Of a DNA stretch of 24,973 bases, positions 1 to 24,973 are shown one piece after another. The stretch's first letter is position 1. Every line of letters starts with the position of its first letter. A program made the position numbers and the translations under genes. The notes beneath the pieces are model-generated. The model was not told where the DNA came from, did no database searches, and saw nothing but the letters and a program-made list of their open reading frames with translations. Origin of the DNA: a virus (Duplodnaviria > Heunggongvirae > Uroviricota > Caudoviricetes); IMG/VR virus record IMGVR_UViG_2724679239_000007, positions 1 to 24,973 of that record. One strand, given 5' to 3'.

Positions 1-343
1 TCAGGCATGGCACACCCCCTGACGAATACGGGCGGCGAATACCATCACGCAGCCAGCCGGGGATTGCTGGCGTGCTTCCTGTTCGCTGCTGGCCACGATG
101 TGAATCACGCGCGGTTGTGCGGTGCTCAGGGCGATAAAACGCCAGATGTATTTATTCAGGTCGTGCGAGTCCCGCCCTTGCGGGTGTGTGGTATGATTTA
201 ACATAGCTACCTCGATACTGTTGCTATCGTTGGTGGTTAGACGCCCTGCATGTGTTCCAGCACTGCGGGGCGTTGCGTTATTAAATGCACACGTGTTAAT
301 GTGTACACCTATCGAATGAAAACATAACGCCATAGGTGTACAC

Positions 344-538
344 ATGTCAACAATAATTAAACGCGATAAAAAACCCAAAGGGACAGGAAAGGCTCCCCCT
401 TTCCATATGCGTATAGCTCCAGAACTGAAAGAACAGTTTGATAGCGAGGCTAATAATGATGGTGTAAGCCTTGCTAACTGGCTTAAAGAGTTAGGGCGCT
501 CCGAACTAAAGCGGCGCGGTATCGAACCTAAGGGGTGA
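344..538 (+). CDS. Small ribbon-helix-helix-like DNA-binding protein (YlcI/YnfO, DUF3950-like)
   Basis: 64-aa ORF with motif HMRIAPELKEQF...GVSLANWLKELGRSEL, resembling Arc/MetJ-type RHH small prophage proteins; lies in an AT-rich segment. Family assignment from memory only. Confidence 0.4.
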   Translation: MSTIIKRDKKPKGTGKAPPFHMRIAPELKEQFDSEANNDGVSLANWLKELGRSELKRRGIEPKG

Positions 539-569
539 ATTACTACTTCTATGATAGGATATATTAACA

Positions 570-1013
570 ATGAAGAGATTTAGAACAATATTACTAAAAA
601 TACTCGGTGCAAAAACATCCATTGCCATATTATGTGTTTTTTGTGGAGCAAGCTTTTTGTTCGGCCAATATCTTAATGATATGAATCTATTCGCCAGCTC
701 AGGTGCAATTATTTCAGTTTTTGGATTGTTGTATACAATCAAGTTCACAACTTTAAAAAAATTATCTAATCGCGAAGCTGAAATTAATTCACGCAGTGGC
801 GTAACTGGCCCGCCATTGTCTGCGGAAGAATCACAAAAGATACGAGAAGAAAACTTAGCTAAAGCTCGAGTTGAGGTCAGAGAGGAAATAAAAGCTGAAG
901 TACTCGGGGTTGGACTAACTGTTTTTGGCACCATTATATGGGCATATGGCGGATACATAAAAATTATTCCATCCCTCGTAATGTGGATAAGACATTCATT
1001 GTTGATGCAATAG
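570..1013 (+). CDS. Hypothetical small membrane protein (two predicted TM segments flanking a charged helical segment)
   Basis: ATG start; 147 aa; hydrophobic stretches near the N- and C-termini with a charged central segment (EESQKIREENLAKARVEVREEIKAE); AT-rich codon usage; followed by a hairpin plus T-run. Confidence 0.45.
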   Translation: MKRFRTILLKILGAKTSIAILCVFCGASFLFGQYLNDMNLFASSGAIISVFGLLYTIKFTTLKKLSNREAEINSRSGVTGPPLSAEESQKIREENLAKARVEVREEIKAEVLGVGLTVFGTIIWAYGGYIKIIPSLVMWIRHSLLMQ

Positions 1014-1035
1014 GGAAAAATATAAAAATAAAACT

Positions 1036-1066
1036 GGCGACCACCTCGGTCGCCTTTACTTTTATC
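1036..1066 (+). terminator. Rho-independent terminator-like hairpin downstream of the membrane protein gene
   Basis: GGCGACC-acctc-GGTCGCC stem-loop followed by TTTACTTTTAT. Confidence 0.4.
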
Positions 1067-1229
1067 TAAAGTCCAATTGATAAAATAAAGAACTGCAGCA
1101 TCTATTCCTGCAAAACTTCATGCTTTCAGGACGGCTGCTCATATGTCATTTTTTAGCAGAAGATTTTGCCTTGCTGGTGGGGAGCTTCCCGGTTAACACG
1201 ATGTATCGTATAATCAGCAATGCGCGTGG

Positions 1230-1811
1230 TTACTGAATACGCTCACCAAAGTAAAACTCAGGCTGATATTCACGTATCAGCCTTTTTTCTTCTTCCTCCA
1301 GCTCACGCTTTTTGCGCTTACATGCCTGTAGCTCCCTCCCCTTCTCGCTGGCACTTATTTGATATTGCTCTTTACGGCGGGAAAAATCCTGTAATGCACC
1401 CCACGGGATACCATAAGCCCCCGTTTTTCTGATACCTGGTATCACATTCCTGAATACCCAGTTACTGAAACGATGGGCGAACGTGCCAGGAGTAACAGCT
1501 TTGCGACTTCTGGCGATCAGCTTGTAAAAACCAGATTCAGAAACGACGCTATGATTTGGATTTCCGCGAATACCGTAGCTTAAAGCGACGGTATTCTTCT
1601 CATCCACATCCAGAGCTTTTAGAGCATCGCGTGAGTTGCTTATTTCCAGAGCTTCACAAACATCCTTTGCAACAAACCACGGATCGCCGTTCAGATACAC
1701 CACACGAACATCCACGCCATCAAAGCGCAGAACGACAAGATCACGAATATCGCAGAATTTTTTTACTGAACGAGCGTACCCCTTGCCCGTCACGGCAATA
1801 TTTTTATTCAT
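1230..1811 (-). CDS. Bro-N domain protein (phage antirepressor-like) with C-terminal charged coiled region
   Basis: N-terminal region LVVLRFDGVDVRVVYLNGDPWFVAKDVCEALEI matches the Bro-N fold signature; C-terminus is a Glu/Lys/Arg-rich predicted coiled coil. Confidence 0.6.
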   Translation of the reverse strand: MNKNIAVTGKGYARSVKKFCDIRDLVVLRFDGVDVRVVYLNGDPWFVAKDVCEALEISNSRDALKALDVDEKNTVALSYGIRGNPNHSVVSESGFYKLIARSRKAVTPGTFAHRFSNWVFRNVIPGIRKTGAYGIPWGALQDFSRRKEQYQISASEKGRELQACKRKKRELEEEEKRLIREYQPEFYFGERIQ

Positions 1812-1869
1812 CGTTTTTTACCTCACATACAAAAAACCCCGCATTGCGTGCGGGGTATGAAAGATATTA

Positions 1870-2073
1870 TTAGTGGGGATTGGCCTGTTCTCGTTGTTTA
1901 TCTAACCATGCCTCTACATCTCTACGGTGCCAGGTATGCCGCCGCCCAATTCTGAACGGTTGAGGAAAACCATTATTTTCATCTTTCCAGAAATTGATGA
2001 ATGCGCTCATTGCCCCATAGCGCAAAATTTTCATTACGTCTTTAGTAAATAAAATATCTTCATTGGTATTCAT
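1870..2073 (-). CDS. alpA: AlpA-family transcriptional regulator / excisionase-like protein
   Basis: 67 aa; HTH pattern and the W-x-R-x-D-V-E-A-W-L C-terminal motif typical of AlpA/Vis proteins next to P4-type integrases. Confidence 0.65.
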   Translation of the reverse strand: MNTNEDILFTKDVMKILRYGAMSAFINFWKDENNGFPQPFRIGRRHTWHRRDVEAWLDKQREQANPH

Positions 2074-2085
2074 TTGCTGAACTCC

Positions 2086-3324
2086 TCAACCATTTACTAT
2101 TCTCAAACCTTTCTTACCACCGGATCTATTAATTACCCCTTTTCTCGCCTCATCAAAAAAATCTCCTACCCATTGCATCATAATTTTGCGTTGTTCTAAA
2201 TAAGTAGTTCTATTATAAATATCTCTTATTTTATCACCACTTTTATGTGCTAATGCAGCCTCAATAACATCAGGGTTAAAACCCTCCTCATTTAAAAGCG
2301 TACTCCACATCGAACGAAAACCGTGTAACGTTACAATCCCTTTGAACTTGCTGGCAGCAATTGGGGTATTGATAGTATTCTTTCCCATAGGAGCATCTTT
2401 TGTTCTGGAGGAAAAAAATATATAACGCCCTCTTTTTATTTTCTGCATTGTTCTTAGGATTCTAATAGCCTGTGATGAGAGAGGCACAACATGTTCACGA
2501 TGGCATTTCATTTTATGCGCGGGGATAATCCACAAGCCAGAATCAAAATCAATCTCGGACCACTCTGCTTTAATCGCCTCACCTGGCCTGACCATTGTCA
2601 ATATCTGGAATAAAAGTGCATTGTGAGCTATTTGATACTTATGAGGCACACTATCCCACCAACTCAGAAATTCAGGCAATCTTTCAACAGGTAGTGCAGC
2701 TAATGATTTATTTTTCTTTCCTGTGAATGCAGTTTTTATCTTAAGTAATGGATTCGTTTTCAATGCTCCACAATTTACAGCGTAATTCATAATTTCATTT
2801 AATCTTGATATTAATTTTTTTTGCAACGCATTCTTATCGGATACGGCATCCAGAGCATTAATAGCTACTGGCGCTGTAATTTTCTCTATGCTGTACTTAC
2901 CAAAGAAAGGAACAAGATATTTGTATACTTCATATTCGATATTATACAGCGTAGGTTTCCGCAATTCCGATCCCTTTTTAAAAGCGATCCATGCATTAGC
3001 AACAGCTTCAAATGTTTGTAGATTTTTTAGTGACATCTCAATTTTACGATTTTTCTTCTCTGTCACTGGATCAACTCCACGTGCAATCATTCGCCGAAGT
3101 TCATCACGTATTTCCCGTGCTTCCGCGAGTGAGAATTCAGGAAAACGCCCTATCGTGTATGTCTGCCGTTTCTTCGTTATCGGATGGCTATAACGGAAAC
3201 GCCACACTTTCCCACCAGCTTTACTCACATTCAGCAATAAACCGAACCCATCATAAACGGCATAGTCCTTTTCACGTGGTTTCATTCCCTTAACTTCAGT
3301 CACGGTTAATGGCTTTACCGGCAT
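2086..3324 (-). CDS. int: P4-type tyrosine integrase (DUF4102 arm-binding N-terminus)
   Basis: 412 aa; N-terminus LTVTEVKGMKPREKDYAVYDGFGLLLNVSKAGGKVWRFRY is typical of the P4 Int family; catalytic region with HGFRSMWST and a C-terminal IRDIYNRTTY tyrosine motif; AT-rich gene. Confidence 0.85.
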   Translation of the reverse strand: MPVKPLTVTEVKGMKPREKDYAVYDGFGLLLNVSKAGGKVWRFRYSHPITKKRQTYTIGRFPEFSLAEAREIRDELRRMIARGVDPVTEKKNRKIEMSLKNLQTFEAVANAWIAFKKGSELRKPTLYNIEYEVYKYLVPFFGKYSIEKITAPVAINALDAVSDKNALQKKLISRLNEIMNYAVNCGALKTNPLLKIKTAFTGKKNKSLAALPVERLPEFLSWWDSVPHKYQIAHNALLFQILTMVRPGEAIKAEWSEIDFDSGLWIIPAHKMKCHREHVVPLSSQAIRILRTMQKIKRGRYIFFSSRTKDAPMGKNTINTPIAASKFKGIVTLHGFRSMWSTLLNEEGFNPDVIEAALAHKSGDKIRDIYNRTTYLEQRKIMMQWVGDFFDEARKGVINRSGGKKGLRIVNG

Positions 3325-3485
3325 CTATCGCCCTCATTTTTTAGTCCGTCATGTAGTCCTTTCAAGTCGATAACAAGCGATAAACTAACTCATTATCAAG
3401 TAAAGAGAGGAAACACAAAAAATCACAACTCATTGAAAAGACTACAAAACGACACCAGAACATAAAAACAGGTAAGAAATGTACC

Positions 3486-4481
3486 CTACATCCAGAATGA
3501 CGCAATACGTGAGCGTCGGGGATCACCATAACGACTGCCATCCGCATTGATGGATTCACCATCCCGCAACCAGACCCCACGTCCGTTCAGCTCACGTTTT
3601 TGTTCAGGCATAATCCGTCCTGAACAGGAAGGACACTGAATATAAGCCGCCTCACTTGCCAGCACGGGATCGGCAATATCACGGAAACCAGCAACCACAT
3701 CGCCGCAGGGCTGAAAAAACTCACCACAGTGTGGACAGGGCCAGTACCAGCGACGGCGATCGCCACGGTTATAGAGCGACAGTATCCCCGTGGTTGGTGG
3801 AGCCTCATGCGGTGAAGTCCGTCGCCATTTCACATCCTTCACATCCCTGCCGGGGGAACTCTCCACCAGCGTCATACCGCTGGACATAAATGTGGTGGTA
3901 CGTTTTGAGGCAAGAGAGAAAGCATCCCCCTCGCCATCAATATCTTCCGGAAAACGGTCATAATCCGTCAGCGCCACGCATTTATAATCTGATGAGGACA
4001 TGATATTGACTGACGGCCAGCCGATTTTCAGGTAGTTGCCAGCAAGGAATGTTCTGTCATAAACGTTGTTGTCATTTTTGTTCGGACTCAGGCGACTGAC
4101 CACTTCCGGGCTGACGCGAAACGTTCTGGCGAGTCGTTTTTTGGAGTGTTCGCGGGCTTTTTCCTCCGTCATCTGAATGATCAGCATATCCGCAGGATCG
4201 CAAATCACGTTGTAAATCACCCAGCCGTCAATCAGGCCGATAGTCTTGCCGGTTCGTGCCGGGCCAACAAATATCACTGCGTCGTATTCACGCGAGGCCA
4301 GGCAGTTCATCGGCTCAATAACATACGGTGCCACCAGCGGATCCCACGGGACTGAGTTCCCTGCCCCCATGGGCACCCGCATATACTGAGCAACGGCATC
4401 AGCAACCCGCATTCGTCTCGGTGCGCGAAGGATATAACCTGAATCGGTTCGTGCTGCCTTTGCGGTTTCCTGATTCAGCAT
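3486..4481 (-). pseudogene. Terminase large subunit (lambda gpA-like), N-terminal ~331 aa only; 3'-truncated
   Basis: Similar to the lambda gpA N-terminal ATPase region (WPCPHCGEFFQ, GVWLRDGESI); the frame ends abruptly at about 3486 where the P4-type int upstream region begins; a full gpA is about 640 aa. Confidence 0.7.
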
Positions 4482-4975
4482 TACTCCTCCTGCTGTAATT
4501 CCTCCTCATCATCCGCACCTGCTTCGGTCACCCGCAGGGCTATCTGATCGCGCAGATCATCAATAATGGACTGAACACGGCTCACAGCGGCAGGCTGCAG
4601 ACCACAGTCACGTTCCAGAATATCCGGTAATGTCTCCAGCACCTGCACGACCGCTTTTGCCCAGATGGCAAACTCCCGTCTGACATCACTGGCCGGAATG
4701 AGTTGTGCCGTTTCCTGTTCGAACTTAAGACGCTCACGTTCAGACTGATACCAGGCTTTGCGCTCATGCGCGTCCATTTCGCCTTCTGCAACCGGCGGTG
4801 GTAATGCCAGAAATGCCGACACAATATCAACCACCCGATAAAGCTTGAGGTTGCTTTCATGCCCCCCTGCAACGGGTAGATTTTGCAGCCTTGCCGCAGC
4901 AGTCTGGCGATGTACACCTGACAGTGCCGCCAGTTGACTGATATTCAGCGTCAGATTTTTTAACTCTCGATCCAT
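4481..4975 (-). CDS. Terminase small subunit (Nu1-like DNA packaging protein)
   Basis: 164 aa; N-terminal HTH (LNISQLAALSGVHRQTAAARLQN) and acidic C-terminus resemble lambda Nu1 / Noh proteins; start overlaps the downstream terL start (ATGA). Confidence 0.7.
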   Translation of the reverse strand: MDRELKNLTLNISQLAALSGVHRQTAAARLQNLPVAGGHESNLKLYRVVDIVSAFLALPPPVAEGEMDAHERKAWYQSERERLKFEQETAQLIPASDVRREFAIWAKAVVQVLETLPDILERDCGLQPAAVSRVQSIIDDLRDQIALRVTEAGADDEEELQQEE

Positions 4976-5508
4976 ACCCGCTCCGGAATGTTTTAAACAT
5001 GCATCTTGCGAACAACTTTAGGCAAACGGTGTTAGTGATGAACAAAAAAATAATCAAAATCGACACCATAAAAATAAAACCACTGTAATATCAATCCATT
5101 ACAGTAGTGGTGATGACGAATGAAATTTCAAAAACTAGCCTTTTTCCGCGACGCTCCCGCCCCGTGGCAGGCCACCCCACCGGGAGGACCCGTCAGCCTG
5201 ACAGCCATGACGAACGTCTGATACAGCGCCCTGCATGAATGGCATCGGGATAATCCAGAAAGGAATAGCATCGTGCCCACAAGAATCTGTGTGAGTGTCC
5301 TGTTTCTTCCCCCCCGCACACTCACGCAGAAGGGGTTCCCCGTCGAGTTACGGTCATAGTTAATGCAGGAGACAGCGACGATATAGCGCACAGAAATAAA
5401 TCAAGCATCCATTGAATGCATTGCATCGACAGGAGTAATGGCGTAGGCTGAACCCTTGGCTCTCTTTCGCCGCCGGCAAATCTTCAGCGGATTATCCTTG
5501 GCCGGTTT

Positions 5509-5973
5509 TTATCTGAGGCATTGCTCACGAATGTATAGCTGTGCCCCTTCCAGTTGCTTCTGCATCGTCATCAATCGGTCTCTGAGGGTGAAATAATCCC
5601 GTTCAGCGGTGTCTGCCAGTCGGGGGCTGGTTGCATCATCCACGCCGGAGGAGGCGGTGGCTTCACGCACGGCTGGACAGACTGCTCTGATGCGCAACCG
5701 ACGACGACCAGCGGCAATATCATCACGCAGAGCATCATTTTCAGCTTTCGCATCAGCTAATTCCTTTGAATATTTTGCATCGAGTGCAGCAACGTCACGC
5801 TGGCGCACCTTCATATCAGTAATGATCGCCTCTGCCAGTTTCAGCTCTCTGGCATTGTCATCGCGTTGTGTTTTGTAGGTAATGGCGTTATCGCGGTAAT
5901 GATCTGTTGCCAGCCACAGAGCACTACAGACCATCAGCAGGACAATAATCACGCCATACAGAATCCGGTTCAT
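5509..5973 (-). CDS. rz: Rz i-spanin (lysis)
   Basis: The ORF-track frame 5509..6021 has a likely true start at MNRILYG (cat at 5971-5973); N-terminal TM followed by coiled-coil periplasmic domain; Rz1 embedded in the +1 frame. Confidence 0.75.
   Translation of the reverse strand: MNRILYGVIIVLLMVCSALWLATDHYRDNAITYKTQRDDNARELKLAEAIITDMKVRQRDVAALDAKYSKELADAKAENDALRDDIAAGRRRLRIRAVCPAVREATASSGVDDATSPRLADTAERDYFTLRDRLMTMQKQLEGAQLYIREQCLR
5571..5753 (-). CDS. rz1: Rz1 o-spanin lipoprotein (embedded in Rz)
   Basis: 60-aa ORF inside Rz in another frame; signal peptide with lipobox VVVGC and a proline-rich mature part (PPPPPAWMMQPAPDW). Confidence 0.7.
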   Translation of the reverse strand: MRKLKMMLCVMILPLVVVGCASEQSVQPCVKPPPPPAWMMQPAPDWQTPLNGIISPSETD

Positions 5974-5995
5974 TTCACCACCAGTGGATTTGCCC

Positions 5996-6901
5996 CTATA
6001 TTTCCAGACACCTGTTATCACTTAACCCATTACTGGCCTGCTGCCGTAGATATTCCCGTGGCGAGCGATAACCCAGTGCACTATGCGGATGCCATTCGTT
6101 ATAATGCTCGAACGCCTCTGCAAGGTTCTTTGCTGCCGTTAAACCGTCTGGTTTAGGCATGACACTGATGTAGTCACGCTTTATCGTTTTCACGAAGCTC
6201 TCTGCTATGCCGTTACTCTCCGGACTCCGCACCGCCGTGTTCTTCGGTTCAAGCCCCAACATCCGGGCAAACTGGAGTGTTTCATTAGCCCGGTAGCATG
6301 AACCATTATCCGTCAGCCACTCTACTGGAGACGCCGGAAGCTCGTTGCCGAAGCGGCGTTCCACCGCTCCCAGCATTACGTCCTGTACTGTTTCACTGTC
6401 GAAGCCGCCCGTAGTGACTGCCCAGTGCAGTGCCTCACGGTCACAGCAGTCCAGCGCGAACGTGACTCGCAGTTTTTCTCCGTTATCACAGCGGAACTCG
6501 AACCCGTCAGAGCACCATCGTTGATTGCTTTCTTTCACGGCCACTTTGCCTGTATGTGCCCGTTTCGATGGCGGTACAGCGGTTTTTCGCTCAAGCAACA
6601 GCGCATTCTGGCGCATGATCCGGTAAACCCGTTTGGCATTGATCGCAGGCATACCATCAAGTTCGGCCTGTCTGCGAAGCAGCGCCCATACCCGACGATA
6701 ACCATACGTGGGCAGCTCTCCGATAACATGGTGTATACGGAGAAGCACATCCGTATCATCTGAGTGACGGCTGCGGCGACCATCTTTCCAGTCATCGGTT
6801 CGTCTGAGAATTACGTGCAACTGCGCACGCGACACCCGGAGACAACGGCTGACTAAGCTTACTCCCCATCCCCGGGCAATAAGGGCGCGTGCGCTATCCA
6901 C
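5996..6901 (-). CDS. insD: IS2 transposase InsD (OrfB)
   Basis: 301 aa with DDE/rve integrase core; recognised as IS2 OrfB. Confidence 0.9.
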
Positions 6902-7224
6902 TTTTTTGCACGCCCATATTCAACGGCTTCTTTAAGGAGTTCATTTTCCATCGTTTTTTTTCCGAGCAGGCGCTGGAGTTCTTTAATCTGCTTCATGGCA
7001 GCAGCAAGTTCAGAGGCAGGAACGACCTGCTCTCCTGCGGCCACAGCAGTAAGACTTCCCTCCTGGTATTGCTTGCGCCAGAGAAATAACTGGCTGGCTG
7101 CCACACCGTGTTGCCGGGCAACAAGGGAGACCGTCATTCCCGGTTCAAAACTCTGCTGAACAATAGCGATCTTTTCCTGTGTAGTACGCCGTCTGCGTTT
7201 CTCCGGTCCTAAGACATCAATCAT
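6859..7224 (-). CDS. insC: IS2 InsC (OrfA) regulatory/HTH protein
   Basis: 121 aa from [12 protein letters not shown]; overlaps insD as expected for the IS2 programmed frameshift arrangement. Confidence 0.85.
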
Positions 7225-7315
7225 CTGCTCTCCAATGACTAGTCTAAAAACTAGTATTAAGACTATCACTTAAATAAGTGATACTGGTTGTCTGGAGATT
7301 CAGGGGGCCAGTCTA

Positions 7316-7410
7316 ACCAGCGTATCTGACCGATGAAATAACCGGAGCCCATAACCACAAACACCTGCCAGATAAGGATGAACTTCCAGGTGGATAATTT
7401 TTCAGCCATC
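7316..7410 (-). pseudogene. Small hydrophobic ORF (about 32 aa before insertion) between endolysin and Rz, clipped at its last two codons by IS2
   Basis: MAEKLSTWKFILIWQVFVVMGSGYFIGQIRW runs directly into the IS2 left end; after removing IS2 and one ACCAG copy the frame would end ...IRWW, with a TGA stop overlapping the Rz ATG. Confidence 0.25.
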
Positions 7411-7604: not shown

Positions 7605-8138
7605 TTATCTGTCGATCCCCCAGCACACCAGCGCACTCTCCTGGTCACGACGAATAACCTGACCGTAACAGTTATTTGAACGAATGCGGCAATCACGGCC
7701 ACCGTCCTTAATCCACCAGCGAATCGCCTCGCATGCGCCTTTACGATCACCGGCATTCAGCCGCTTATAAAACGTCGACGGGAAACACTTACCGGGGCCA
7801 ATGTTATAGGGACAAAATGACGCAATACCTGCTTTTTGTGGTTCGGTCAGTGGTACTTTTATATTGCGATCCACCCATGCCAGCGCCTTATCACGTTCAA
7901 TAGCGTTAACCTGGTCGCATTTTTCCTTCGACAGCTTCATTCCCGGTATGACGGGCTTACCATCCACCATTGTGGCACCACGACAGATGGTCCATATGCC
8001 AGAACCATCACGGTATGCCGTTGTGTGGTTACCTTCTTTTTCATCCAGAAACTGGTCAAGTATCTGAGGAGCAGATGCTCCTGCTCCAATCAGCGCCAGA
8101 ACTGCAGCTGACAGGCCGTATCTGATTTTTGCGTTCAT
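7605..8138 (-). CDS. SAR endolysin (phage 21-type lysozyme with signal-arrest-release N-terminus)
   Basis: 177 aa; N-terminal SAR segment YGLSAAVLALIGAGASAP followed by a lysozyme domain; paired with an S21-type pinholin upstream. Confidence 0.8.
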   Translation of the reverse strand: MNAKIRYGLSAAVLALIGAGASAPQILDQFLDEKEGNHTTAYRDGSGIWTICRGATMVDGKPVIPGMKLSKEKCDQVNAIERDKALAWVDRNIKVPLTEPQKAGIASFCPYNIGPGKCFPSTFYKRLNAGDRKGACEAIRWWIKDGGRDCRIRSNNCYGQVIRRDQESALVCWGIDR

Positions 8139-9337: not shown

Positions 9338-9412
<75 letters not shown>

Positions 9413-9415
9413 ATA

Positions 9416-9491
<76 letters not shown>

Positions 9492-14110: not shown

Positions 14111-14278
14111 ACCCATACATCTCCTTGCCTTTCGGCACGTAAGAGGCTAATCTTCAGTTGTCGAGACATAAGACTGGCCTCACTTCGATTTATAGTCGGG
14201 TGGGGCTTTTCTCTATCTGCCTTTTGGTGTTCATGCCTGAGACAGATAGCCTCAAGCACCCGCAGCAATTCTACTTAA
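13082..14278 (+). CDS. DDE-type transposase (N-terminal HTH plus rve integrase core), IS481-family-like
   Basis: HTH region HFWDKHGISAASEAFGVSCRTLYWWRQ; catalytic D (GMDAIE), D (TDNGKEF) and E (ICERFNRTL) with about 58 and 35 aa spacing; the C-terminal tail beyond about residue 340 looks like read-through into flanking DNA. Confidence 0.7.
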   Translation: MQMQHLMVGYPKYYQTADYALRLSVMADTATMRMKALHFWDKHGISAASEAFGVSCRTLYWWRQLLNKEGPEGLIPHSKAPLVRRKKHWHPDVLKEIRRLRTELPNLGKEQIFVRLKPWCEQRYLACPSVSTIGRMIAAAHDKMRMIPVRLGSRGKALLVKKRSAKPRRPKHYRPVKTGELIGMDAIELRMGELRRYVITMIDECSNYALALAVPSLNSDIVNHFFSRAARLFPVGISQIITDNGKEFLGNFDKTLQEAAIKHLWTYPYTPKMNAICERFNRTLREQFIEFNEILLFEDLALFNQKLAEYLVLYNSKRPHKALALMTPVEYILRENKNCNMWWTHTSPCLSARKRLIFSCRDIRLASLRFIVGWGFSLSAFWCSCLRQIASSTRSNST

Positions 14279-18086: not shown

Positions 18087-18534
18087 TAGCTTTTTCTATA
18101 AGCTCGTCAGTCTCACGCTCCACAACAGCGGGATCTGCCAAAAGCAGACCGGACTCCACCACATCGCCATATTCTTTGTTTAACCCGGCGATCATGTACG
18201 TAATGCTTTTTCCGTCACTAATTTCACGATACAACCTGAAATCATTAATCCGGATAGCCTCCATAATTGCAGGCACTAGCGCCGTGAACTTTTCACGCTT
18301 ATCCCTGGTGTCGATAGCCTTCCAGCGTTCGAATATCTTCACTCGATTAACGCCAAGCGCTCGCTGATCAACCGCGCCACCTTCATCTGTGACACGCTGA
18401 ACATCGAGGTTCGGGCGCTCTTTCAGAGCCCAGAATGCTTCAGTGATTAATATCGTCGCCTGCTCCTGTGTCATTCCTGGTCGACATATCCAGGCATCCA
18501 GAGCCTCACGAGCCTGTTCAGGAGTGATTTTCAT
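18013..18534 (-). CDS. Hypothetical early protein in the cII position (possibly YdaT-like)
   Basis: 173 aa between the cro-like dicC and the O-like gene; helical; assignment by position and weak recollection only. Confidence 0.35.
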   Translation of the reverse strand: MKITPEQAREALDAWICRPGMTQEQATILITEAFWALKERPNLDVQRVTDEGGAVDQRALGVNRVKIFERWKAIDTRDKREKFTALVPAIMEAIRINDFRLYREISDGKSITYMIAGLNKEYGDVVESGLLLADPAVVERETDELIEKAIAFKHAYRQQYQQKAGWNYESSFC

Positions 18535-20396: not shown

Positions 20397-20452
20397 TTTC
20401 TGGTGACGTTTGGCGGTATCAGTTTTACTCCGTGACTGCTCTGCCGCCCTTT
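20397..20452 (+). ncRNA. dicF: DicF small RNA (ftsZ-targeting antisense sRNA)
   Basis: TTTCTGGTGACGTTTGGCGGTATCAGTTTTACTCCGTGACTGCTCTGCCGCCCTTTTT matches my recollection of DicF, including the terminator hairpin GGCGG...CCGCC plus T-run; sits just upstream of dicB. Confidence 0.7.
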
Positions 20453-23616: not shown

Positions 23617-23865
23617 ATGGCAAGACTTATTCTGCTCACTGAGTGGGCAAAAGAGGAATTCAGTGAACCGGTCCCTACTCCGGGTACATTAAGTAAATAC
23701 GCTAAAGCCGGAATGATATTTCCCCTCCCCAAAAAAGTTGGAAGACACTGGCGAGTGGATCCACGGGCTCGTTTTGTCGGAATGGTAAGCAAGCCTGAGG
23801 TGATCGCCACAGATCACCCGGCTTTAAAGAGGATACTGGAAGATGGCTCGCCCTCGAAAATATAA
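23617..23865 (+). CDS. xis: Excisionase (Xis-like)
   Basis: 82 aa; winged-helix excisionase-like core (LTEWAKEEF...AGMIFPLPKKVGRHWRV); overlaps the int start as in lambda xis-int. Confidence 0.55.
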   Translation: MARLILLTEWAKEEFSEPVPTPGTLSKYAKAGMIFPLPKKVGRHWRVDPRARFVGMVSKPEVIATDHPALKRILEDGSPSKI

Positions 23866-24973
23866 AACCGATGTTCCGGGGTTATCTCCGTATTTTGACA
23901 AAAGAAATAACAAAGTTTACTGGCGGTACAGGCATCCCATCACAGGCAAAAATCACGGACTCGGCAGTATTGACCAGAAACTGGCGGAAACCATTGCAGC
24001 AGAAGCAAACAGCCGCCTTGCCAGACAACAAATGGAACAAATGTTCAGTCTGCAGGAAAAAATTATTAGTGATACCGGCGGTTCATCAACCGTTTCAATT
24101 TTTCTGAATAGTTACAGAAAAATTCAACAGGAAAGATATGAAAACGGAGAGATCAAACTCAACACGCTAAAACAGAAAGCGGCCCCTCTCAGAGTGTTTG
24201 ATGAACGTTTTGGAGCCAGGCAATTAGATGCCATAACCGTAAAAGATATTGTATCGGTGTTGGAAGAATACAAAGCAAGAGGACATAACAGAATGGGACA
24301 AATTTTCAGGAAAGTACTGATCGATGTTTTCCGGGAAGCTCAACAAACAGGCGATGTCCCGCCAGGGTTTAATCCGGCAGAATCGGCAAAAAAACCACAG
24401 GTACGGGTATCAAGGCAACGACTGACCTTTGATGAGTGGATGATGATTTATAACGCAGCGGAAAAAGAGGGTTACTTTTTACAGCGTGGCATGTTGCTTG
24501 CGCTGATGACAGGGCAGCGTCTTTCGGATATTAGCAAAATGCAGTTTTCGGATATCCGGGATGGCTATCTTCATGTTGAACAGCAAAAAACGGGAGCCCG
24601 AATTGCTATCCCTCTGGCTCTGCGTTGCGATAAATTAAATCTTACCCTGGATGATGTGGTGTCATCCTGTCGCGATTGCGTTCTTAGTCCGTGGTTATTG
24701 CACCACCATCACGCGAAAGGGACAGCTAAGCGCGGCGGAATGGTTAAACCAGCAACGTTAACTGTTGCATTTAAAAAAGCCCGGGATTCTGTAGATTACA
24801 ACTGGTGTGCCAATGGTACCCCACCCTCTTTCCATGAGCAGAGATCTTTATCAGAACGATTGTTCAGAGAACAGGGAATTGACACCAAAACTTTGCTGGG
24901 CCATTCGAATCAAAAAATGACCGATATTTACAACGACGCACGCGGTAAGGAGTGGAAAAAACTGGTCGTTTGA
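23843..24973 (+). CDS. int: Lambda-family tyrosine integrase (prophage int at the element edge)
   Basis: 376 aa; C-terminal catalytic region HEQRSLSERLF and LLGHSNQKMTDIYNDARGKEWKKLVV parallels lambda Int (HELRSLSARLY, LLGHKSDTMASQYRDDRGREW); stop codon at the window end. Confidence 0.85.
   Translation: MARPRKYKTDVPGLSPYFDKRNNKVYWRYRHPITGKNHGLGSIDQKLAETIAAEANSRLARQQMEQMFSLQEKIISDTGGSSTVSIFLNSYRKIQQERYENGEIKLNTLKQKAAPLRVFDERFGARQLDAITVKDIVSVLEEYKARGHNRMGQIFRKVLIDVFREAQQTGDVPPGFNPAESAKKPQVRVSRQRLTFDEWMMIYNAAEKEGYFLQRGMLLALMTGQRLSDISKMQFSDIRDGYLHVEQQKTGARIAIPLALRCDKLNLTLDDVVSSCRDCVLSPWLLHHHHAKGTAKRGGMVKPATLTVAFKKARDSVDYNWCANGTPPSFHEQRSLSERLFREQGIDTKTLLGHSNQKMTDIYNDARGKEWKKLVV

Follow-up and report, generated by a model that had tools for sequence, protein, structure and literature searches.

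A PICI-type satellite probably embedded in the terminase gene of a lambdoid prophage, and the late-gene sites of its integrase relatives

The stretch of viral DNA analyzed here (the window; 24,973 nucleotides, positions 1 to 24,973 of IMG/VR record IMGVR_UViG_2724679239_000007) raises the question why the gene of a P4-type tyrosine integrase (int) abuts the broken end of a prophage gene for the large terminase subunit (terL). The original prediction, made from the sequence alone, offered two readings: a P4-type integrative element residing in the packaging module of the prophage, where it replaces the 3' part of terL along with head and tail genes, or two elements joined by deletion. We propose, with a probability of roughly 0.85, that the window from position 1 to about 3488 is the int-proximal end of an about 11-kb satellite of the phage-inducible chromosomal island (PICI) type, integrated by a tyrosine recombinase in terL of a Qin/DicF-type lambdoid prophage. 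The element is a helper-embedded satellite of the published kind (helper-embedded PICI, HE-PICI), with a different integrase lineage, arm motif and target family. HE-PICIs were described by Tommasini, Mageeney & Williams (2023, NAR Genom Bioinform, PMC10111431), who reported 491 satellites, 14 sites and nine lambda-cognate late genes.

The reading frame of terL gives the first part of the answer. As foreseen, it stops at 3486 after 331 residues, and a Pfam search finds GpA_ATPase and no nuclease domain in this fragment. The expected full length of 640 residues was too short: complete members of the family reach about 700 aa. The related prophage L085 has an intact TerL of 701 aa, which equals the window fragment at 329 of 331 residues. 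The upstream region of int, put at about 160 bp, is indeed non-coding over 161 bp, and int with the AlpA-like and Bro-N genes beyond it was rightly described as AT-rich: the GC fraction is 0.36-0.41 over 1750-3500 vs 0.52-0.55 over terL and the gene for the small terminase subunit (terS). All three satellite genes (int, AlpA-like, Bro-N) and terL are co-oriented on the minus strand.

The crossover emerges from a comparison of four attachment (att) sites, with attB taken from L085 (empty site, intact 701-aa TerL), attL from the related island L001, attR from the window and L001, together with attP. The sequences are ...ggaccctc CATCCAG aatgacg... for attB, ...ggcccctc CATCCAG gaagaag... for the far junction, ...gtacccta CATCCAG aatgacg... 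for the window junction and ...gtacccta CATCCAG gaagaag... for attP. Identity across all four sites is confined to the 7 bp of CATCCAG (3489-3495); mismatches flank this block left and right, the pattern that a tyrosine recombinase overlap region should show. In the O157-type island L003 both junctions read CATCCAA, a synonymous change on the coding strand (TTC to TTT, Phe). The island-derived A at 3488 turns terL codon 332 from GAG into TAG, and the truncated TerL therefore ends cleanly after M331. The comparison reveals no replacement sequence for terL in attP. In-silico excision at three loci restores a TerL open reading frame (ORF) of about 700 aa with GpA_ATPase at residues 41-304 and GpA_nuclease at 326-644 (Pfam), a layout that places the insertion at the hinge between the ATPase and nuclease domains. 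This clean att set, the 7-bp identity block and the restored frame contradict a joint by deletion and bear out the P4-type element in the packaging module.

The other end of the island is visible in relatives. L001 is collinear with window 1-5243 at 97.4% identity, and window position 1 corresponds to an Icd-like gene inside the island. Complete islands measure 10.3-11.3 kb. Their far end abuts the missing terL half, annotated as 'terminase gpA endonuclease subunit, missing N-terminus' (L001, L002, L003, L087), and portal, protease-capsid and tail genes lie beyond it. A search for a junction repeat, proposed with the original prediction, thus finds the same 7-bp core 10.3-11.3 kb away, and the terL 3' end, head and tail genes thought to be replaced continue intact on the far side of the island. 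Of 5,426 complete E. coli genomes, 90 carry the int-proximal arm, at a total of 98 places, and the same-nucleotide junction, counted with an 82-bp query spanning it and covered at >=80%, is present in 86 (86 of the 90 arm carriers). About 1,385 genomes contain the target terL family, which has about 1,504 locations among them; a comparison with intact terL copies had likewise been advised, and their homology to the window begins exactly at 3483/3484, which together with the att sites defines CATCCAG as the core. The site is hence occupied in about 1.6% of complete E. coli genomes and about 6% of target terL copies.

The four complete islands reside in different helper contexts: a Qin-like prophage (EC21GDE043), a prophage adjoining yjjG (strain C6), an Stx1a (Shiga toxin 1a) prophage (O157) and a Qin-like prophage (O121). 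The terL targets among carriers share 66-99% nucleotide identity. Both observations speak against a single clonal carrier lineage with one helper prophage, which thus appears unlikely from these sequences. The int arm is present in many O157, O121, O145, O45 and O111 genomes. Carriers also include the strains UK_Dog_Liverpool (NZ_CP031653) and EC21GDE043 (NZ_CP099721). In L003 (E. coli O157 FDAARGOS_293, NZ_CP022050.2) the satellite lies in terL of the Stx1a prophage, with the junction at 18516 and stx1AB at 25788-27014.

The original prediction reasonably regarded a terminase gene as an unusual place for an integrase junction, yet satellites within prophage late genes had already been described in 2023 (PMC10111431). 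There, the habit was ascribed to one integrase clade, and the question was raised whether a peculiarity of that clade explains the tropism. The window integrase (Int) belongs elsewhere: it shares 33% identity (208 bits) with P4 Int and 25% identity (85.5 bits) with Int of the HE-PICI prototype 11capE. We assembled a graded series of its Enterobacteriaceae relatives from a large protein collection and inspected the region directly upstream of int for ten of them. At 96% identity to the window Int (E. coli) this region is the GpA terL hinge, i.e., the site of the window, and at 75% (Salmonella) it is the same hinge with the same core. A second Salmonella relative (63%) follows a portal gene and then a gene for a 484-aa Peptidase_S78-like protein, and an E. 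coli relative at 59% follows head genes, a tail-completion gene and then a truncated phrog_1072 gene. Upstream of int in a Raoultella relative (51%) lies a major capsid gene truncated to 153 aa; two relatives at 50% adjoin Portal_3, Mu_F and Pa193_gp24 (E. coli) or baseplate genes (Enterobacter), one at 49% (E. coli) adjoins HNH and Terminase_2 terS, and one at 45% (Pantoea) adjoins terS, terL and portal_3. All nine sampled relatives at 45-96% identity thus adjoin phage late genes and are co-oriented with them, and no tRNA was found near these nine loci. For five of the nine, the int-side junction alone was inspected, and some relatives may have inserted into a different satellite instead of a prophage. 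The tenth relative, at 41% (Pectobacterium), directly follows tRNA-Pro(GGG) at chromosomal yejK-yejL-yejM.

Two annotated E. coli genomes show that the targets of the 59% subgroup are truly interrupted. In TUM9812 (L107) a lambda-type gpA is broken by the island behind codon 331, with core CACATCTGGAC ('SFHIW|TAYSP'), a position homologous to 'SFWM|EG' in the window, and in-silico excision restores gpA. In PapRG-04-4 (L106) the core is CTCTTTTGGAC and the island splits a 188-aa gene of the neck/tail region. The int genes of the two are about 96% identical (nucleotide) and their attP flanks are identical, but cores and targets differ. On sequence grounds, the pair looks like a recent switch of integration site, and it is a natural experiment in the evolution of such sites.

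The attP arms separate this family from those described before. The int-proximal arm carries GGACTAcatgacGGACTA, read on the plus strand as TAGTCC at 3342-3347 and 3354-3359, with the int-side motif centered at +141.5 bp from the crossover center; in the far arm of the complete islands (L001-L003) a co-oriented GGTACTAaatctgGGACTA is centered at -77. The GGACTA motif count was matched in only one of 5,000 shuffles. P4 shows, in its annotated attP, tandem arm repeats of 12 bp near -75 and +134, and the published HE-PICI attP has a doubled tgTGTATTGCantgTGTATTGCa motif (TGTATTGC) at -81 and +132 from the center (PMC10111431). This published motif is absent from the window even with three mismatches allowed, and the GGACTA arm motif was not found in P4 or 11capE. 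The arm geometry is of the general P4 type and the motif sequence is specific to this integrase family: GGACTA lies upstream of int in all family members, the tRNA-Pro targeter included. This outgroup, whose attP arm (L104 3440-3500) has the doubled GGACTA and an extra inverted TAGTCC pair nearer int, shows that the arm motif predates the move to late-gene targets. In the window, a promoter-like site lies at 3365-3336 in the int-proximal arm, and no terminator-like site was seen on the minus strand between the terL fragment and int (3325..3488).

In a neighbor-joining tree (a distance tree of a small sample), 28 integrases at >=47% identity form a clade with 79 of 100 bootstrap replicates that takes in eight late-gene contexts out of nine. 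The ninth, from Pantoea, groups with the tRNA-Pro targeter in the sister group, and both P4 Int (32%) and 11capE Int (23%) are placed outside. When species-representative genomes were scanned with Int, only relatives at <=41% identity appeared, as the clade carriers fall outside the representative set, and in a phage genome collection all matches were below 40% identity. We consider it rather probable that the window Int belongs to a second integrase clade that favors prophage late genes, P4-proximal, equipped with GGACTA arms and separate from the published one, with at least eight late-gene sites. Its members (45-96% identity) occur in Escherichia, Salmonella, Raoultella, Enterobacter and Pantoea and in several phage morphotypes. 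They sit in or beside the GpA terL hinge (two divergent TerL lineages), a protease/capsid gene, a truncated major capsid gene, a neck/tail-region gene, the terS/terL region, the portal region and a myovirus baseplate region.

The strongest competitor of an embedded satellite is a dead-end accident, i.e., a one-time off-target integration of a P4-type island that inactivated the prophage, so that a decaying composite was inherited vertically and embedding had no adaptive role. An insertion sequence (IS) in the late operon of the window helper, pseudogenized tail or capsid genes in several relatives and the truncated look of many published helpers (PMC10111431) would fit such decay. We nevertheless regard the accident as improbable: the same junction recurs in at least four prophage contexts and chromosomal locations with terL targets as far apart as 66-86% nucleotide identity, the core changes along with the target (in the O157 type both ends read CATCCAA), a 75%-identical Salmonella integrase uses the same site, the 59% subgroup reaches the homologous codons of a lambda-type gpA, and int, alpA and bro are intact ORFs. 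The possibility that int-alpA-bro is a native phage module, a moron or second integration module, had been kept in view from the start. It draws on the co-orientation of these genes with the late operon and on the frequency of Bro-N/anti-repressor genes in lambdoid phages (L003 has one in the lysis region). It is nonetheless highly implausible, since about 1,385 genomes carry this terL in one piece, the island brings a primase, a single-stranded DNA-binding protein (SSB), a capsid and cos-like copies of its own, and deposited phage genomes lack a close Int relative (all <40% identity). A deletion or recombination joint of two unrelated elements, or an assembly chimera, as might be suspected from the one junction visible in the window and its abrupt change in composition, is effectively refuted by the identical junction in 86 independently assembled complete genomes, by the reciprocal junction with the same 7-bp core and the missing terL half 10.3-11.3 kb off, and by the break of empty-site homology exactly at the core. 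As it recurs in differing helpers, the junction can be neither an artefact of assembly nor a single deletion joint, nor part of a module native to the phage.

The embedded satellite can be followed beyond the window in its collinear relatives, which add a DUF4222 gene, a primase, an SSB, a fusion of protease and major capsid protein (MCP) and, in some, a TerS. The primase of the L001 island is 87% identical to the published HE-PICI 11capE primase. The late zone consists of genes captured from the helper: compared with the helper's own proteins, the satellite TerS homologue shows 71% and the ClpP-protease/major-capsid fusion 57% identity. In addition, a GC-rich cos-like block of about 75 bp is conserved in four helper and six satellite copies at about 90% identity; by its conservation and its position upstream of terS, as for lambda cos, it is a putative cos region. 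L002 additionally holds fragments of tail-assembly genes. The variable TerS and tail fragments suggest that the late zone of the satellite is dynamic, and one of its two cos-like copies may be a relic of late-gene capture.

By analogy with 11capE (Eco567.11capE), for which late satellite excision was measured after the composite had excised and replicated (PMC10111431), the life cycle might run as follows. Helper induction would replicate the composite, and Q-dependent late transcription would run on into int and alpA. The satellite would excise late and thereby re-create terL, replicate from its own primase and origin, and be packaged by the helper TerL via the cos-like copies, possibly assisted in some variants by its own TerS homologue, in capsids to which its own protease-capsid fusion contributes. 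Until the satellite has left, the helper would be without terminase. On this model, about 7-8 kb to the left of the window should contain the primase, SSB and protease-MCP genes, gaagaagtaaat-type island sequence abutting CATCCAG, and terL from E332.

Several points weigh against this interpretation. The window ends inside the island at the Icd-like gene, and the far junction and terL 3' half of the window copy lie beyond it. The excision, replication and packaging steps are all borrowed from 11capE, whose Int is only 25% identical. Each complete related satellite has two cos-like copies flanking the protease-capsid gene, a duplication that the model does not account for, and a satellite terS is missing from L003 and L087 (O157 and O121 types), with the DUF1441 TerS homologue found in L001 and L002. 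The AlpA-like assignment hangs on a single PHROG match (E=9e-7): the Pfam HTH_17 match is under threshold, no BLASTP similarity to P4 Vis was found, and relatives bear the PGAP label HTH regulator WP_001095275. Finally, an IS2-like element lies within the helper late operon, upstream of terS/terL, between the lysozyme gene and Rz. By polarity it may have crippled the helper, in which case the composite may no longer be inducible and the satellite may be stranded.

In its organization the embedded satellite closely resembles the HE-PICIs, which are co-oriented with the late operon, consist of int/AlpA, Bro, replication and late zones and have an attP without replacement sequence (PMC10111431). 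Likewise, it is inserted, co-oriented, in a prophage late gene (terL, codon 331); the int/AlpA and Bro zones are followed by primase/SSB and late zones, the last two seen in collinear relatives outside the window; attP offers no replacement, so that the target is disrupted and restored by precise in-silico excision; and satellite and helper have a cos-like sequence in common, with doubled arm motifs at comparable distances from the core. Unlike the HE-PICIs, its Int scores 85.5 bits (25%) against 11capE Int, below the survey cutoff of >=400 bits to 11capE Int (PMC10111431), and is nearer to P4 Int; the arm motif is GGACTA instead of TGTATTGC; the AlpA-like protein is barely similar to that of 11capE; and the target is the hinge of a GpA-family TerL vs Terminase_1-family TerLs. 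The GpA terL target is absent from the 14 published sites: the terminase 'A' sites are Terminase_1:132 and :245/246 (PMC10111431), and neither 'GpA' nor the CATCCAG core with its flanks occurs in the supplements, of which one table was covered in part. New here are therefore the integrase lineage, the GGACTA arm motif and the GpA terL target; the embedded lifestyle itself has been known since 2023 (PMC10111431).

With P4 the satellite shares the P4-type Int (Arm-DNA-bind_3) and tandem arm repeats of 12-bp period, about 75 bp and, on the int side, about 134-141 bp from the core. P4 integrates into a tRNA-Leu gene and regenerates tRNA-Leu, whereas the satellite truncates a protein-coding phage gene. 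It further differs in its lambdoid rather than P2-like helper and its arm repeat (GGACTA vs GGGGGCA in P4). None of sid, psu, delta and epsilon was found in L001 or L002 (annotation, Pfam), and none of the Rfam P4-type immunity RNAs (C4/isrK) occurs in window 1-5600 at the gathering and E-value thresholds. Like the Gram-negative cos-type PICIs (EcCICFT073), it is built on an int-alpA-primase backbone (about 10-15 kb), has lambdoid helpers and is presumably packaged via cos, but it is helper-embedded, and some variants have a TerS homologue and a protease-capsid fusion gene. EcCICFT073-type PICIs use chromosomal sites and interact with the helper only in trans (Fillol-Salom et al. 2018/2019, summarized in PMC10111431). 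In contrast to capsid-forming PICIs (cf-PICIs) with portal, protease, major capsid, head-tail connectors, TerS and HNH, the related islands possess just the protease-MCP fusion with or without TerS. The arrangement also recalls regulated gene integrity or 'active lysogeny' (Listeria comK prophage, sporulation skin elements), where a gene is split without replacement and restored by precise excision at a defined time; here, however, the split gene is itself part of a second mobile element, and the satellite, not the cell, would profit from the regulation. In the literature on integrative elements in Stx-prophage terminase genes or PICIs interrupting terminase genes, we found only the Tommasini paper and its preprint. 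Sp7 of O157 Sakai, called 'chimeric lambdoid and P4-like', is reported to excise spontaneously, to encode Int and Vis of the P4-like type and to have a disrupted alpha-like gene (PMC2669165). By this description it is a candidate for a composite of the same kind.

If the second clade holds, helper embedding would be a convergent, recurrent satellite strategy and not a quirk of one integrase clade, and terminase production would be gated in medically relevant helpers such as Stx1a prophages. Indeed, an Int only 23-25% identical to that of 11capE, with other arm sites, on a nearly identical backbone points to selection for the lifestyle and exchange of integration modules rather than to integrase mechanics. 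In some O157 strains, packaging of the toxin phage would hinge on satellite excision from Stx1a terL. As annotation pipelines label the split terL as two terminase pseudogenes, such composites could be mis-scored as defective prophages.

The features of the window and related loci are collected in Table 1. ORF calls place the genes from 1 to about 8,100 on the minus strand, except for the accessory ORFs at 344-1013 (plus strand). Together, the tRNA-Gly and tRNA-Thr genes, the sok RNA, DicF and the right-end ORF assign the helper to the Qin/DicF-type lambdoid prophages. The right-end ORF holds the position of the prophage integrase gene in L085 and is a candidate for it by position. The largest share of the window covered by any complete E. 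coli genome is 58%.

Table 1. Coordinates of features in the window and in related loci.
Feature	Locus	Position	Strand	Evidence or remark
Icd-like small gene, 67 aa (satellite)	window	1..204	-	collinear with L001 23498-23701 ('host cell division inhibitor Icd-like'); PHROG 6196 match
Variable accessory spot of the satellite between Bro and Icd-like genes	window	344..1013	+	two small ORFs
YlcI/YnfO (Arc-like) ORF, 64 aa	window	344-538	+	weak Arc-like/HicB match
Predicted membrane protein, 147 aa	window	570-1013	+	ORF call
Bro-N domain gene (anti-repressor-like), satellite 'Bro zone'	window	1230..1811	-	Pfam Bro-N E=1.8e-18; PHROG 2593 anti-repressor E=4e-83
Strong terminator-like hairpin between AlpA-like and Bro-N genes	window	1836..1856	-	8-pair stem, 6 G-C pairs, then TTTTTTG
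AlpA-like excisionase/regulator, 67 aa	window	1870..2073	-	PHROG 66 'excisionase and transcriptional regulator' E=9e-7
P4-type tyrosine integrase, 412 aa (satellite)	window	2086..3324	-	Pfam Arm-DNA-bind_3 (N-terminus), Phage_int_M, Phage_integrase
Non-coding spacer int/terL, 161 bp	window	3325-3485		sequence reading
Int-proximal attP arm	window	3325..3488	-	doubled GGACTA-N6-GGACTA; supplies TAG stop 3486-3488
Crossover identity block CATCCAG, 7 bp (CTGGATG on the coding strand, within F-W-M codons 329-331)	window	3489..3495		four-way att comparison
Helper terL N-terminal part, 331 codons, entire ATPase domain	window	3486..4481	-	Pfam GpA_ATPase residues 41-304
Helper small terminase subunit terS (DUF1441)	window	4481..4975	-	Pfam DUF1441 E=3e-41; PHROG 141 'terminase small subunit' E=7e-74
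Putative helper cos region	window	5120..5191		upstream of terS, as lambda cos; conserved block
Rz	window	5509 to about 5976
IS2-like element, 1.33 kb (PGAP 'IS3 family')	window	5985-7316		terminal inverted repeats 5993-6024, 7275-7306
Lysozyme gene	window	7605-8138
tRNA-Gly and tRNA-Thr	window	9338-9491		helper landmark
sok antitoxin RNA (hok/sok)	window	14114-14261		helper landmark
DicF small RNA	window	20398-20449		helper landmark
Right-end ORF	window	23843-24973		helper landmark
Cos-like copies	L001	17445-17545, 19985-20080		match sequence upstream of helper terS
Cos-like copies	L002	13165-13262, 16488-16583		match sequence upstream of helper terS
Cos-like copies	L003	8960-9065, 11495-11600		match sequence upstream of helper terS
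Satellite coordinates	L106	13019/24172
Satellite coordinates	L107	12993/23614

The accessory spot between the Bro-N and Icd-like genes gave no PADLOC match for either of its ORFs, and the 147-aa ORF had no match in Pfam, PHROG or PADLOC. The gene content of this spot varies among L001, L002 and L003, as at a defence or accessory hotspot.

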